From: Oscillospiraceae bacterium
Lineage (GTDB): Bacteria; Bacillota; Clostridia; Oscillospirales; Ruminococcaceae
Assembly (NCBI GenBank): GCA_017439985.1
Contig: JAFSIC010000028.1
Coordinates: forward strand, 996 to 64,995
Length of the DNA stretch: 64,000 nucleotides
Reading direction: 5' to 3'
A program made the translations under genes and the position numbers. This document shows positions 1 through 17,337 of this stretch, one piece after another. Under the pieces are notes generated by a model that saw nothing but the letters and a program-made list of their open reading frames with translations, searched no databases and was not told the DNA's origin. Each line of letters opens with the position of its first letter. Position 1 is the stretch's first letter.

Positions 1-469
1 GGAGCGTCCATACTTGAAACCGGAGCAGATCCCACCGCTGAGCCTGTATATCGATCAGATCCTCACGCTGTTTTCCACAGGAAGCAAAGAGGAGCAGGCT
101 CTGACCAAAGCAATGGTCAACAATTACAGCAAAGAAAAAATGCTGCGTCCTATCAAGGGAAAAAAGTACAGCAGAGAACAAATTTTGCAGATCCTGTTGA
201 TTTGTCGTCTGAAATCTGTTTTATCCATGGAGCAGATCAAAACCGTGACGACTGCACTAATGAGCGAGGAAAACTGCGAAGACACCTTAGAGGAGATTTT
301 AGTTGGTGCAGACCAACAGCGTCTATTGACCAAAGACTGTGCCGATTTTGTCAGTGACAGGTTGAACAGCGAAAGTGAAGCAGCTCTCATTCTCGAACTC
401 TGCCAGCTTAGTGACTTTTTCGCCCAAGCAGCAAAGGAACTTGCTGATCATAGTTTCGACAAAAAATAG
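1..469 (+). CDS. DUF1836 domain protein (5' end cut by window edge)
   Basis: ORF 14..469 stays open to the window edge. LTKAMVNNYSKEKMLRPIKGKKYSREQILQILLICRLKS resembles the conserved core of DUF1836 proteins as I recall them. Confidence 0.55.
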   Translation, partial: ERPYLKPEQIPPLSLYIDQILTLFSTGSKEEQALTKAMVNNYSKEKMLRPIKGKKYSREQILQILLICRLKSVLSMEQIKTVTTALMSEENCEDTLEEILVGADQQRLLTKDCADFVSDRLNSESEAALILELCQLSDFFAQAAKELADHSFDKK

Positions 470-11017: not shown

Positions 11018-11677
11018 TTAATCGAAGAGTTTTTTCTTGTAGTAGCCGTTTGCCTGGTAGATGACGGAAGCAGCATTGTGACCCAGCACACGGTCTTTGG
11101 TGAAGAGAGTGGTGCACAGGCCGTCACAGTATTTGTAGTAGAGGCTATCATGACCTACGCAGAGACCCATGAGAACGTTCAGGTCAGTGCCGGCTTTGTT
11201 GAGAATTTTTGCCTGCATGATCGGATTGCAAGCGATTTTACCGGTGGTTTCAGAGCAAACAGCAGGGATGCCCATCTCGGTTTTTGGCACGGAACCAACT
11301 TTGCAGCAAGCGCCGTATACTTCAAAGCCATGATGACGGAAGTATTTGGTTACGATTTTGGCTTCTTCTTTTACGCCGCCGCAGAATGCAATACCAATGC
11401 GTTTTGCACCGATTTTCTTTGCAAATTCTTTGGTTTCCTGCAGACGGGTCAGCTGGCAGTAGAACTCATGCTCTACTTCAGCAGCAGCGATCATTGCAGT
11501 TTTGTTTTCTTCTTCTTGATAGAGATCCATAACCTCTTTCATGAGCTCTTCATCCATACCAGTGGTCAGGCAGAATGGAGGGAATGGGGAATCCTCTTTG
11601 GTGCCGGCGAAACCGCCGCGGCCACAGCTGAAAGTGCCGCAATCGACACAGGAATGTGGGCAATTATGTTCAGACAT
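11018..11677 (-). CDS. DUF1847-family Cys-rich metal-binding protein
   Basis: N-terminal CPHSCVDCGTFSC and C-terminal GLCVGHDSLYYKY...KDRVLGHN pattern that I associate with DUF1847. Start set to ATG 11677, 9 nt after AAAGGA. Confidence 0.6.
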   Translation of the reverse strand: MSEHNCPHSCVDCGTFSCGRGGFAGTKEDSPFPPFCLTTGMDEELMKEVMDLYQEEENKTAMIAAAEVEHEFYCQLTRLQETKEFAKKIGAKRIGIAFCGGVKEEAKIVTKYFRHHGFEVYGACCKVGSVPKTEMGIPAVCSETTGKIACNPIMQAKILNKAGTDLNVLMGLCVGHDSLYYKYCDGLCTTLFTKDRVLGHNAASVIYQANGYYKKKLFD

Positions 11678-11800
11678 TTTATTCATCCTTTCATTTTTCG
11701 ATGTCTTTATTGTAACGCGATGTGAAAGTGGGAGCAAATAGATTAAATCAATGAGAATAAGAAAAATGATAGGAAGAGTGAATGGGGTAGGATAGTTTAC

Positions 11801-12246
11801 TGTCCGAATCCCTCAGCAATTCAAAATAAAAACAAAAGCCACCCTTAACAGGGTGACTTTCGTTTTTTGGCTGGGCTAATGGCGGGGCGGCGGTGAATGA
11901 GTATCTACAAAACAGGAGTAAAAGAACACCGCCGTCAACATCAAACACTTTGCGTCGTACTCTCGACGCAATTTCGTAAACGAACCCGGTTTGATGTCCG
12001 AATCCCTCAGGTAAAACAAGAGAAACAAAAAAGTCACGGTTTATAACCATGACTTCTTTGTTTGGCTGGGCTGGCGGGATAACAGCGCTTGGCGCTGTAC
12101 TGATTGGCTCGATGCACTCGCCAATCTCTCGGACTAAAAAAGTGTCACAGTCACTTTTTTAACGTCCTCGACCCTCTCAGGGTCCGAATTCCTTAGCAAT
12201 CCAAAATAAAAACAAAAGCCATCCTTAACAGGATGACTTTCGTTTT
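11801..12246 (-). repeat. tRNA-Gln-linked repeat array (two extra tRNA-Gln 3'-end copies with terminators and inverted T-arm copies)
   Basis: The tRNA-Gln 3' end ATCCCGCCAGCCCAGCCA recurs 18/18 at 12063..12080 and with a 3-nt insertion at 11868..11887. The CCA ends are 184 and 195 nt apart. Each copy is followed by a hairpin plus T-tract and then GTCCGAATCCC in inverted orientation (12180..12192, 11996..12006, 11802..11812). Confidence 0.85.
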
Positions 12247-12322
12247 TGGCTGGGCTGGCGGGATTCGGACCCACGAGATGACGGAGTCAAAGTCCGTTGC
12301 CTTACCGCTTGGCTACAGCCCA
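12247..12322 (-). tRNA. tRNA-Gln (anticodon UUG), CCA encoded
   Basis: Reverse complement TGGGCTGTAGCCAAGCGGTAAGGCAACGGACTTTGACTCCGTCATCTCGTGGGTCCGAATCCCGCCAGCCCAGCCA folds as a cloverleaf with anticodon loop CTTTGAC. Confidence 0.93.
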
Positions 12323-12336
12323 AAATATTTAGATAA

Positions 12337-12368
12337 GGAAAAAGCGGCTTTTGCAAGCCGCTTTTTAA
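12337..12368 (-). terminator. terminator-like hairpin between tRNA-His and tRNA-Gln
   Basis: Minus strand reads AAAAAGCGGCTT-GCAA-AAGCCGCTTTTT with a GNRA loop, followed by TTTTTCC. Confidence 0.6.
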
Positions 12369-12446
12369 TGGGGTGGGTAGTGAGAGTTGAACTCACGACC
12401 TCCAGAGCCACAATCTGGCGCCCTAACCAACTAGGCCATACCCACC
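12369..12446 (-). tRNA. tRNA-His (anticodon GUG) with encoded G-1 and CCA
   Basis: Reverse complement GGTGGGTATGGCCTAGTTGGTTAGGGCGCCAGATTGTGGCTCTGGAGGTCGTGAGTTCAACTCTCACTACCCACCCCA has anticodon loop TTGTGGC. Confidence 0.93.
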
Positions 12447-12455
12447 ATAACTATG

Positions 12456-12532
12456 TGGCGCGCCAAGAGAGACTCGAACTCCCGACCTACTGCTTAGAAG
12501 GCAGTTGCTCTATCCAGCTGAGCTATTGGCGC
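12456..12532 (-). tRNA. tRNA-Arg (anticodon UCU), CCA encoded
   Basis: Reverse complement GCGCCAATAGCTCAGCTGGATAGAGCAACTGCCTTCTAAGCAGTAGGTCGGGAGTTCGAGTCTCTCTTGGCGCGCCA has anticodon loop CTTCTAA. Confidence 0.93.
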
Positions 12533-12540
12533 ATATTTAA

Positions 12541-12614
<74 letters not shown>

Positions 12615-12653
12615 AGGTGTTGCTGTGATTGTTCTGTCCTGACGACGATTGTT

Positions 12654-12682
12654 ATTATATCGCACTTTAATGGAAATGTCAA
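12654..12682 (-). promoter_or_regulatory. consensus sigma-A promoter of the tRNA cluster
   Basis: Minus strand reads TTGACA (12682-12677), exactly 17 nt, TATAAT (12659-12654), about 40 nt upstream of tRNA-Gly. Confidence 0.8.
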
Positions 12683-12707
12683 CACTTTTTTGAAATTTTT
12701 TATTTCT

Positions 12708-12741
12708 TGAAAAAAGGGCGGAGTTATGCGGTTTTCCGCCC
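12708..12741 (-). terminator. intrinsic terminator after the RR-HK-HD operon
   Basis: Minus strand reads GGGCGGA-aaaccgcataact-TCCGCCC followed by TTTTTT. Confidence 0.7.
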
Positions 12742-12778
12742 TTTTTCCGGAAATCGTGGAAAACTTTTTTCAAAAAAC

Positions 12779-13438
12779 TTAAAGAATATTCTGTCCGTTG
12801 ATGCAGAGATGGAAGTCCAAATTCAGACGTTCCGCAGCTTTGCGACAGAGAAGCATGCGGTCCATGAAGATCTCAAAATAGGTGAGGACAGGAGAAATCT
12901 CAGAGTCAATGCTCAAGTCCAACGTGACAGACTTTTTGTCCTCGCTGAGAATAGTGCAGGACTGAGATACCGCAAAGTTCACACGGTCGTGAATGTCAAA
13001 AGTAGATGGCTCCTGATTGCGGACACGGCTGCGGCGCACATCGGTTTTGTCACCGAGGATGATGGCGGCGGCCACCTCGTTGACAGGAAAAGCGGTTTTT
13101 TCATCGTGGTTGCCAATGGCGCTGACGATGGTGGAAAGTTCCTCCGGGTCGCAGCCCAGCTTGTCCAGAATACGGAAAGCCATCACAGCACCGCTCTGCG
13201 CGTGGTCATGACGATTGACAATGTTACCGATGTCGTGCATATAGCCGGCGATCCACGCCAGTTCTGCGCTGCGTGCAGGGTAACCCAAAGCCAGCAGCAG
13301 TTTTTCCGCAAAATCGGCAACCTTGGTCACATGAGCAACATTGTGCTCGGTGAAACCAAGAGCAGCCATAGATTCATCCGCCTTGCGGATATAGGTGCGG
13401 ATGGATTCATCGTTTTTAATGGATTCTTTTGTTATCAA
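12779..13438 (-). CDS. HD-domain phosphohydrolase
   Basis: FTEHNVAHVTKVA ... IAGYMHDIGN ... HDHAQSGA ... GNHDE motifs. TTG start overlaps the kinase stop (TTGA). Confidence 0.75.
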   Translation of the reverse strand: MITKESIKNDESIRTYIRKADESMAALGFTEHNVAHVTKVADFAEKLLLALGYPARSAELAWIAGYMHDIGNIVNRHDHAQSGAVMAFRILDKLGCDPEELSTIVSAIGNHDEKTAFPVNEVAAAIILGDKTDVRRSRVRNQEPSTFDIHDRVNFAVSQSCTILSEDKKSVTLDLSIDSEISPVLTYFEIFMDRMLLCRKAAERLNLDFHLCINGQNIL

Positions 13439-16277: not shown

Positions 16278-16316
16278 AAAATACCTCCTTGATGTCTGAA
16301 CTAAGTCTCTGATTTT

Positions 16317-16344
16317 ATTATATGCAGGAATCGAAAAAATGCAA
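16317..16344 (-). promoter_or_regulatory. promoter of small Cys-rich gene
   Basis: Minus strand reads TTGCAT, 16 nt, TATAAT. Confidence 0.6.
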
Positions 16345-16373
16345 GTAAAGGGAGCTGCTTTTTAAGAAAATGC

Positions 16374-16402
16374 TTGACAGAGCCCTTTGCTTGTGCTAAA
16401 CT
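16374..16402 (+). promoter_or_regulatory. promoter of tRNA-Leu
   Basis: TTGACA (16374-16379), 17 nt, TAAACT (16397-16402), 18 nt upstream of the tRNA. Confidence 0.7.
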
Positions 16403-16420
16403 AATATAGCAATTGAACAA

Positions 16421-16504
16421 GCCGGCGTGATGGAATGGCAGACGTGACGGACTCAAAATCCGTTGAGGAGACTCGTGTGGGTTCAAGTCCCACCGCCGGC
16501 ACCA
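16421..16504 (+). tRNA. tRNA-Leu (anticodon CAA), long variable arm, CCA encoded
   Basis: GCCGGCGTGATGGAATGGCAGACGTGACGGACTCAAAATCCGTTGAGGAGACTCGTGTGGGTTCAAGTCCCACCGCCGGCACCA has anticodon loop CTCAAAA. Confidence 0.93.
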
Positions 16505-16743
16505 GAGAGCTCAGGTATCTTCGTGGTATCTGAGCTTTTTTCTATGTTGTGGGACTTGAACCAAAGCGGCCGAAGGCGTAAGAAAATATTCCTGTGGAAT
16601 ATTTTTAGCCTGAGCATTTTGCGAGTGTATCGAGCAAAATATCAGAGATTTGCGAAGCAAATGTCTGTCACAGTCTCACCGCCGACACCAGAATACCCCT
16701 CGGAAATTTCGCTTAGTTATGCGGTTTCCGAGGGGTTCTTTTT
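16505..16743 (+). repeat. tRNA-Leu-linked unit (terminator, inverted T-arm, hairpin scaffold, tRNA-Leu 3'-end copy, terminator)
   Basis: Terminator at 16508..16541. GTGGGACTTGAACC at 16549..16562 is the exact reverse complement of tRNA positions 16480..16493. AGTCTCACCGCCGACACCA at 16672..16690 matches the tRNA 3' end AGTCCCACCGCCGGCACCA 17/19, 186 nt after the genuine CCA. A second terminator lies at 16695..16743. Confidence 0.85.
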
Positions 16744-16848
16744 GTATAAACATGGACTACAGTACCCACTTCCGTACCCACTTTTCAAAAAACACTTGAC
16801 CACAATAGGGGAGTTCATCGTATAATAGATATAAGGAGAGTGATAATC

Positions 16849-17337
16849 ATGCCAATGGAGGGCGTGCAGCAGCCTGAAATCCTTGCGATTGATGATGAGC
16901 TGCGTCTGCGTAAATTCGATAATGAGTTTGCGTTTGCACTGGAATGGTATCAGGATTTAGAATTGGTAAAACTGGTAGATGGGGTAGATGTGCCATATTC
17001 CGAAGATAAACTGGAAAGAATGTACTGCTACCTCGATCGAATCGGTGAGCTGTATTTTATTGAAAAGAAGCTCGATGACGTTTGGACTCCGGTCGGCGAT
17101 GTTTGTATGTGGAAAACAGATATGCCGATTACGATCAGCCGCCCGTTTTGGAAACAAGGCATCGGAAAACGCTGCACCCTGCGTCTTTTGAAACGAGCAA
17201 AAGAACTTGGCTGGCAAAACTGTTTTGTCAATGAGATTTATCATTATAACATTGGTTCGCAGAGACTGTTTGAATGCTGTGGATTCCGTTTGTACGAGGA
17301 GAATGAAGCCGGCAAACGCTACCGCATTGAGCTCTAA
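16849..17337 (+). CDS. GNAT-family N-acetyltransferase
   Basis: The acetyl-CoA motif region WKQGIGKRCTLRLLKRAKELG and the C-terminal FECCGFRL are typical of GNATs. ATG 16849 lies 9 nt after AAGGAGA. Confidence 0.75.
   Translation: MPMEGVQQPEILAIDDELRLRKFDNEFAFALEWYQDLELVKLVDGVDVPYSEDKLERMYCYLDRIGELYFIEKKLDDVWTPVGDVCMWKTDMPITISRPFWKQGIGKRCTLRLLKRAKELGWQNCFVNEIYHYNIGSQRLFECCGFRLYEENEAGKRYRIEL

Follow-up and report, generated by a model that had tools for sequence, protein, structure and literature searches.

Two tRNA loci in the 64 kb stretch of DNA analysed here (the window) raise the question of what kind of structured unit stands behind a tRNA-Gln and a tRNA-Leu gene. The first-pass annotation had described a collinear internal scaffold common to one unit at each locus (unit B and the Leu unit) and had regarded the motif as unrecognised. 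We re-read both units and the letters are identical to those transcribed before; on alignment the two have 77% column identity, which bears out the common scaffold. The 11-nt loop GAGTGYATCGA has exact matches at these two sites only in the 64 kb. The hairpin that carries this loop had been given a 7-bp stem with three compensated pairs in both units. The Leu unit does have a 7-bp stem, but the stem in the Gln unit is 6 bp (ATTGGC/GCCAAT), and the compensation, although present, consists of two compensated pairs and one extra pair when read outward from the loop.

The features of both loci are given in Table 1. The Gln array runs in the order tRNA-Gln, terminator, unit B, terminator, unit C, terminator and orphan inverted T-arm, and a 66-nt direct repeat joins its two ends (11802-11867 and 12182-12247, 92%). 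The units are on the same strand as their tRNA, with a gap of 52 nt between tRNA-Gln and unit B and of 44 nt between tRNA-Leu and the Leu unit. At both loci there is a terminator after the tRNA and after each unit; the terminator scan left out loops of more than 8 nt and hence the hairpin behind the Leu unit is absent from its output. Promoter-like sites are located upstream of the tRNAs only, with none in front of the units, in the regions scanned (11700-12700 and 16280-16860). The genes around both loci are housekeeping genes only (DUF1847, HAD, FolD, HD, PhoR/PhoP-like, GNAT, aminotransferase and PFK) and there is no recombinase gene among the ORFs near either locus. IreB, a Firmicute marker, is also encoded nearby in the window.

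Table 1. Positions of the features at the tRNA-Gln and tRNA-Leu loci of the window
Feature	Position	Strand	Remark
tRNA-Gly/Arg/His/Gln cluster	12247-12614	-	ARAGORN and Rfam
Promoter-like site TTGACA-17-TATAAT upstream of the cluster	12654..12682	-	12/12; sole one in 11700-12700
tRNA-Gln(UUG), last of the cluster; T-arm GGGTCCGAATCCC at 12260-12272	12247..12322	-	ARAGORN
Intrinsic terminator of the cluster	12208..12247	-	18-pair stem and T-run
TLR unit B, type-1 scaffold	12063..12194	-	
Unit B: inverted T-arm	12180-12192	-	12/13 with tRNA-Gln 12260-12272
Unit B: P1 hairpin	12170-12184	-	
Unit B: P2	12164-12167 with 12131-12134	-	
Unit B: P3, A/T-tract hairpin	12136-12160	-	
Unit B: P4, 11-nt-loop hairpin	12103-12125	-	
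Unit B: P5, triloop hairpin	12082-12098	-	
Unit B: 3' end, copy of tRNA-Gln nt 59-76	12063-12080	-	18/18
Intrinsic terminator after unit B	12023..12063	-	
TLR unit C, type-2 scaffold (differs from type-1)	11868..12007	-	
Unit C: inverted T-arm	11994-12006	-	11/13
Unit C: hairpin with AGAGTA loop	11950-11971	-	
Unit C: decayed 3' copy ATTAGCCCAGCCA	11868-11880	-	
Intrinsic terminator after unit C	11828..11867	-	Inside the 66-nt direct repeat
Orphan inverted T-arm copy GGGATTCGGACAG	11800..11812	-	Start of a further unit, without scaffold or 3' copy
Promoter-like site TTGACA-17-TAAACT with TG, upstream of tRNA-Leu	16374..16402	+	Sole one in 16280-16860
tRNA-Leu(CAA); T-arm GGTTCAAGTCCCAC at 16480-16493	16421..16504	+	ARAGORN
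Intrinsic terminator of tRNA-Leu	16504..16540	+	
TLR unit Leu, type-1 scaffold	16549..16690	+	
Leu unit: inverted T-arm	16549-16562	+	14/14 with tRNA-Leu 16480-16493
Leu unit: degenerate sense T-arm box	16568-16576	+	
Leu unit: P2	16574-16577 with 16608-16611	+	
Leu unit: P3	16583-16605	+	
Leu unit: P4	16616-16640	+	
Leu unit: P5	16648-16662, extended 16643-16667	+	
Leu unit: 3' end, copy of tRNA-Leu nt 58-76	16672-16690	+	17/19
Long hairpin and T-run behind the Leu unit	16695..16743	+	Reads as terminator; read from the sequence

Each unit begins with the reverse complement of the T-arm of the adjacent tRNA, from about nt 65 back to nt 52, a feature that the first-pass annotation had overlooked; unit B and the Leu unit end in a sense copy that extends from T-loop position 58/59 through CCA. 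In the predicted fold a closing stem is formed by the 5' half of this inverted T-arm and the beginning of the 3' copy (8 pairs are predicted in the Leu unit), and the acceptor 3' strand and CCA would form a single-stranded tail outside the closed fold. The inverted T-arm of the Leu unit matches its tRNA at every position although its intramolecular partner box is degenerate. Folded as single strands, unit B and the Leu unit have energies of -45.8 and -44.4 kcal/mol, with z-scores of -3.8 and -3.5, respectively, and none of the 200 shuffles is as stable.

This layout resembles that of the tRNA-linked repeats (TLRs), first described in 1978 by Egan & Landy, of which Rudd in 1999 counted 22 copies at ten loci in E. 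coli, each locus having one to five (PMC8144298). The class was founded on the rtT repeats, 178 bp long, in the tyrT operon of E. coli (Rfam RF00391, RtT). A TLR lies in a tRNA or rRNA operon and ends in 18-19 bp that exactly repeat the 3' end of the gene upstream; the repeats have "no known function", an earlier claim for rtT RNA having been retracted (PMC8144298). Unit B and the Leu unit are each located in a tRNA operon, just downstream of the tRNA gene and in its orientation. Their 3'-terminal 18-19 bp repeat the 3' end of their own upstream tRNA (18/18 for Gln and 17/19 for Leu), which agrees with the earlier observation that the ends are specific to each tRNA. The numbers of tandem copies are within the range of one to five, with unit B, unit C and an orphan start at the Gln locus and a single unit at the Leu locus. 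In the predicted fold the 5' segment pairs with the tRNA-derived 3' segment and encloses hairpins, as in the closing stem of RF00391. Because the location in a tRNA operon, the orientation and the 18-19-nt 3' identity fit the published definition (PMC8144298), we assign the units to the TLRs, and the motif is not of an unrecognised kind.

The RF00391 model found nothing in the window at its gathering threshold (45 bits), nor did it match the window units at E <= 10 with lax filters in stretches of 5.5 kb, 461 nt and 251 nt. As positive controls, the four units of E. coli tyrT-tyrV scored 133-137 bits and contig L137 scored 54 bits; an Rfam scan of 20 loci from the architecture scan described below placed the latter matches at two units of a four-unit array. 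Since RF00391 does not match the window units, kinship with the E. coli TLRs rests on architecture and not on demonstrable scaffold homology. The window units are TLRs with a scaffold outside Rfam, a distinct scaffold variant, in a probable Firmicute. We found no description of TLRs outside enterobacteria and no discussion of an inverted T-arm copy in TLRs in the searchable literature; the recent literature that we did find treats TLRs as a feature of E. coli or enterobacteria.

In E. coli K-12, as in the window, TLRs follow immediately on a tRNA (or rRNA) gene and share its orientation, end with 18-19 nt that match the 3' end of that gene exactly, are present in one to several tandem copies per locus and lack promoters of their own. 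Their parts also come in the same order: an E. coli rtT unit reads GGGGAAGGAT (inverse of tRNA-Tyr 59-68), AAGGTTCGA (sense 50-58), a scaffold of hairpins rich in GNA triloops and AATCCTTCCCCCACCACCA (58-76), and the RtT Rfam consensus likewise has a closing stem of the 5' inverse segment with the 3' copy. The E. coli 3' copy includes CCA, and one of the four tyrT-tyrV units is annotated in K-12 as the small RNA RttR, which ends at CCA. Apart from the host (enterobacteria against a probable Firmicute), the scaffold differs, that of the window having a long P2 and an A/U-tract hairpin P3 (consensus GTNAAG-AAAAC...GTTTT-TAG) that are not found in the E. coli unit. Additionally, the window units are bracketed by strong intrinsic terminators, one of which separates the tRNA from the unit, whereas in E. 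coli there is no hairpin terminator between tyrV and the first unit. A structured element between two terminators is seen in E. coli in RrA, RrB and RrF (between T1 and T2 of rrnA/B/D), the 3' end of which is also a copy of the final 18 nt of the stable RNA upstream, although in this case the upstream gene is 5S rRNA (PMC8144298). RrA/B/F arise by read-through and subsequent processing, and in vitro they bind Hfq and CsrA through GGA motifs (PMC8144298).

We searched other collections for relatives of the units. A 15-mer around the conserved loop (GCGAGTGYATCGAGC) gave more than 120 matches in viral contigs, all of them chance or coding, and a strict two-box pattern from both units gave one chance match in the genome collection, in a GC-rich coding region. 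The exact loop and junction of the window units are evidently private to this lineage. The type-1 5' box pattern matched only contig L136 in the viral contigs, and BLAST of the L135 and L137 units against phage and plasmid collections returned nothing useful. Because the conserved-loop pattern scans failed, we scanned for the architecture itself, using the pattern GGTTCGAATCC, 50-80 nt, GGATTCGAACC, that is, the common T-arm and then its inverse. This gave 6 loci in viral contigs and at least 120 in metagenome contigs. Among the 128 matches listed, at least 103 loci have one real tRNA arm with a non-tRNA inverse copy downstream and only 4 are convergent tRNA pairs. The earlier reading depended on the existence of further copies, and at least 103 tRNA genes in metagenomes have the same architecture.

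Among the matches listed, the inverse copy in the 103 loci lies 39-68 nt beyond the tRNA end, and 56 of the 103 have a copy of tRNA nt 59-73 downstream, which is within about 260 nt of the inverse copy in 55/56 (range 72-259 nt, median 132 nt). In 49/55 of the listed units the first position of the 3' copy is nt 56, 57, 58 or 59. A terminator-like hairpin is present between the tRNA and the inverse copy in 80/103 listed loci and after the 3' copy in 36/52. The tRNAs in the matches listed represent at least 12 amino acids (Ser, Arg, Gln, Glu, Val, Tyr, Lys, Pro, Ala, Thr, Asn and Leu) and include genes with and without an encoded CCA, with G+C contents of 46-76%. There are several scaffold classes among them, the type-1 scaffold of the window accounting for approximately 15 of the 55 listed units.

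The first-pass annotation had argued for selection on a folded RNA or DNA hairpin and against neutral decay of a duplicated tRNA. An alignment of 16 type-1 units, including both window units, gives a consensus of four helices (closing stem, P1, P2 and P3), with compensatory change in 17/23 pairs. In this alignment 89.9% of the cells are paired in comparison with 73.7% when shuffled (0/500 shuffles reach the observed level) and 38-48% with slid partners. A covariance model built from the 16 units matches further sequences outside the training set. The resulting alignment of 35 sequences, which was fitted to the model and hence leans towards it, is 90.8% paired, with compensatory change in 19/23 pairs and 128 compensated cells against 38 in shuffles. 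Over both alignments the paired share is approximately 90%, in comparison with 72-74% for shuffles and no more than 53% for slid partners; the closing stem (helix 1) is 87-90% paired with compensatory changes. The pairing in the family exceeds all 500 shuffles, with support for the closing stem, P2 and P3, and the argument for selection is upheld. The P4/P5 part of the scaffold does not align across the family, and the covariation covers the other helices. Contigs of the same species (L121-L128) are identical to the window over the units and so are uninformative on covariation.

When run on the window, the covariance model finds the two units only (99.1 and 79.5 bits, both being training sequences), the next best match having 13 bits. 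There are 45 matches in the fetched loci, some from sequences outside the training set. The RtT-positive units of L137 are matched at 26-36 bits, part of which comes from the tRNA-derived ends. Within the family, unit B and the Leu unit are mutual nearest neighbours.

The data also show which strand is folded. In 17 sequences of the 35-sequence alignment P3 has a G.U pair at its foot, the sense strand folds better than the antisense strand in 41/58 units (p = 1e-4), and the hairpin loops are biased by strand (GNA 46 against TNC 4; GNRA 16 against TYNC 1). Because of the G.U pair, the strand-biased loops and the stability of the sense strand, the strand that folds is the tRNA-sense strand. In view of the E. 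coli data, the simplest reading is that it would be RNA. Single-stranded DNA would likewise be consistent with selection on a folded sense strand.

In order to follow the turnover of the units, we compared the window with two contigs that have a common gene neighbourhood of HD protein, tRNA cluster and DUF1847. In L259 (DUF1847 79% identical) tRNA-Gln has no unit. L130 (DUF1847 83% identical) has a single unit, of type 2, and its entire tRNA segment lies in inverted orientation with respect to the flanking sequence. The number of units at tRNA-Gln is therefore 0 (L259), 1 (L130) and 2 plus an orphan (window). In another contig, L243, there are units behind tRNA-Phe, Leu and Arg that have a common scaffold and ends that track each tRNA. 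In L255 there are units behind tRNA-Arg and Lys, and the one difference between the T-loops of these tRNAs recurs in the inverse copy as well as in the 3' copy. In L243, L255 and the window, scaffolds are genome-specific and ends are locus-specific.

Taken together, the window units are probably TLRs in the full sense, modules that are transcribed by read-through, processed like tRNA 3' ends and turned over by recombination. By analogy with rtT RNA and RrA/B/F of E. coli, a module would be transcribed by read-through from the tRNA promoter and the transcript would end at the terminator of the unit itself. The terminators before the units are strong (16-18-pair stems) and so read-through may be rare. 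The fold would be closed by the inverted T-arm, and the machinery for tRNA 3' maturation would then cut and trim the transcript to give, on the same analogy, a compact and stable small RNA. This RNA might have a sponge-like protein- or RNA-binding role of the kind proposed for RrA/B/F, which is the only experimentally suggested one (PMC8144298). Recombination across the repeat that spans the tRNA 3' end, the terminator and the inverted T-arm may add units, remove them and build arrays, and gene conversion or local spread may keep the scaffolds at different tRNA loci of one genome alike while the ends stay locus-specific. Unequal crossing-over and gene conversion would cover the arrays, the losses and the similarity within genomes, but not the first acquisition of ends that match a new tRNA.

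These results suggest that the TLR architecture is widespread and not only enterobacterial, that it comprises several scaffold families, that an inverted T-arm copy is part of it, and that in at least one scaffold family structural selection clearly acts on the sense strand. They make a case for several new RNA family models beside RF00391, and they account for many annotated "tRNA fragments" and dual terminators behind tRNA genes without prophage scars. A 45-year-old puzzle of tRNA operons is thereby reopened in a form that can be tested in many organisms. A bolder proposal, that TLRs are a pan-bacterial and actively spreading class with both ends templated on whichever tRNA precedes them, we put forward only as a long shot. 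If true, it would imply an undescribed RNA- or ssDNA-based process of recombination or copying at T-loop position 58/59. The TLR would then be a self-retargeting module and the type-1 scaffold one of several families that use it.

We think it unlikely that the units derive, as scars or in miniature form, from integrase-mobilised elements with the tRNA T-loop as their target. An attP-like circle of approximately 185 bp (tRNA 3' end, terminator and arms) would be acted on by a tyrosine integrase in trans, and new units would insert beside the tRNA with older ones pushed outward. The T-loop is a classic sublocation of tRNA-targeting integrases, and in 49/55 units identity with the tRNA begins at position 56-59 in the T-loop and extends to the 3' end, as in an att scar. 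Likewise, attR fragments of tyrosine-integrase islands and prophages are downstream direct repeats from the T-loop to the tRNA 3' end that form tandem arrays at tRNA hot spots. In the window array the best-preserved 3' copy is nearest the tRNA, the presence of units varies among relatives, and there is a P4-like integrase ORF after the four-unit array of L137, with integrases also in L190 and L135. However, a Pfam scan of downstream ORFs in other loci found an integrase in only 1 of the 10 checked, and the window loci are flanked by housekeeping genes with no adjacent integrase or element body. Between the window repeats there is no island or integrase but only approximately 130 nt of covarying hairpins, and the inverted T-arm copy sets the window units apart from attR fragments. 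Integrase arm sites should keep their sequence, whereas in the scaffold it is the pairing that is kept, with compensatory changes, a G.U pair and loops biased by strand. Often the last element of an array is an orphan inverted T-arm, which would not be expected from simple integration. Additionally, the same layout occurs in E. coli behind 5S rRNA, where TLRs carry the 5S 3' end and would not suit a T-loop-specific integrase (PMC8144298). Since phmmer with the L137 integrase and the Pfam scan found few integrases near the loci, a miniature integrative element was dropped as the main explanation. Bridge-RNA, omega-RNA and CAST homing guide RNA, an 18-nt primer-binding site of retroviral type, and hairpin elements of the IS200/IS605 or RAYT type were also considered and rejected, having neither an associated protein nor a matching layout.

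Rather less probable again is that the units are folded ssDNA substrates for recombination, like integron attC or the attP of CTX phage, with cassettes exchanged at the tRNA. The inverted and split T-arms would rebuild a duplex T-arm site from which the scaffold branches at 58/59. GNA triloops closed by C-G are classic stable DNA mini-hairpins, and such triloops are abundant here; it is the sense strand that folds, the split T-arm has the scaffold precisely at its 58/59 junction and the arrays resemble cassette arrays. Against this, no IntI-type recombinase is encoded among the ORFs near both window loci and Rfam attC has no match in the window. GNRA tetraloops (16 against 1) and the conserved G.U pair are features seen more typically in RNA, the terminator kept by each unit makes sense for a transcript, and the E. 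coli members are demonstrably made and processed as RNA (PMC8144298). A tRNA pseudogene was rejected because no tRNA model matches over the units, the tRNA-derived sequence being confined to the last 18-19 nt and the inverted 13-14 nt. It is least credible of all, to the point that we hardly entertain it, that the units are neutral debris, either decayed tRNA duplicates or a chance likeness of two intergenic regions. There is tRNA-derived sequence at both ends of the units and the 3' copy of unit C has decayed, but the interior has no similarity to tRNA, the folding z-scores are -3.5 to -3.8, the covariation in the family exceeds all 500 shuffles and the architecture recurs behind at least 103 tRNA genes.

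Three type-1 units, that is, tRNA-linked repeats with the scaffold shared by unit B and the Leu unit of the window, lie on a single 14-kb contig (L243, 2858-14219), where they follow tRNA-Phe, tRNA-Leu(CAG) and tRNA-Arg(ACG). The scaffolds of the Leu and Arg units are 82% identical, whereas their ends are fully tRNA-specific.

The array behind the window tRNA-Gln also contains a second scaffold type, that of unit C, in which a long outer stem (CATCAAAC/GTTTGATG) is combined with an AGAGTA-loop hairpin and a stem rich in GC. This scaffold recurs in L130, a relative with the HD, tRNA cluster and DUF1847 neighbourhood of the window. The AGAGTA hairpin stems of the two units differ by compensated changes (TTGCGTCG/CGACGCAA in one, TTGTGCC/GGCACAA in the other).

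Coordinates of the units with the second scaffold type and of a TOTE protein
Feature	Location	Strand	Description
Unit C	window 11868-12007	-	second scaffold type
L130 unit behind tRNA-Gln	about 165-320	-	sole unit there; scaffold type as unit C
TOTE conflict-system protein	L151 1823-4450	+	archaeo-eukaryotic primase domain and helicase, Pfam PF22548

There is a 66-nt direct repeat in the window (11800-11867 and 12182-12247, both minus strand; 92% identity) that spans the terminator and the beginning of the inverted T-arm copy. No scaffold follows the distal copy, which is an orphan, and the arrays in L137, L216, L203 and L238 likewise close with orphan starts. In L137 (9880-12453), the 3' part of tRNA-Ser terminates a prophage-like region and is followed by four units of the RtT type (period 184 nt), which are like the E. 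coli tyrT operon repeat, then by the orphan start and a P4-like integrase gene. This tRNA is a hot spot common to three kinds of element.

The copied tRNA 3' end in unit B, along with the terminator that follows it (12023-12092, minus strand), gives a weak match to Rfam RF02432, the Streptococcus sRNA SpF25 (27.9 bits; gathering threshold, 48). SpF25 may itself be a transcript of a tRNA end plus terminator.

In L130 (1-1010, set against window 11677-12779), the entire tRNA-Gly/Arg/His/Gln segment and its unit are turned round with respect to the HD and DUF1847 genes on either side, an orientation opposite to that in both the window and a second such relative, L259. The unit-less space behind tRNA-Gln in L259 contains another palindromic sequence, roughly 150 nt long (2741-2885; GATATTCGTTCC...GGGAACGAATATTACATCAT), which includes an ATTTGC-AAA-GCAAAT hairpin and within which there is no tRNA-derived sequence. 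In another relative (L131, 2617-4194, plus strand), the DUF1847 gene is stripped of its tRNA neighbourhood and sits beside a large serine recombinase and the spore-coat genes cotJ.

Finally, an insertion sequence with the ends GTGGNCAAAAAATNGCAAATATGAGTACTG splits four units belonging to tRNA-Val or tRNA-Glu (L149, L151, L153 and L208). All four are interrupted at the same relative place, directly past the inverted T-arm copy, a pattern suggestive of an IS family whose targets are structured units of this kind. The TOTE protein gene of L151 adjoins the tRNA-Glu whose unit is interrupted.
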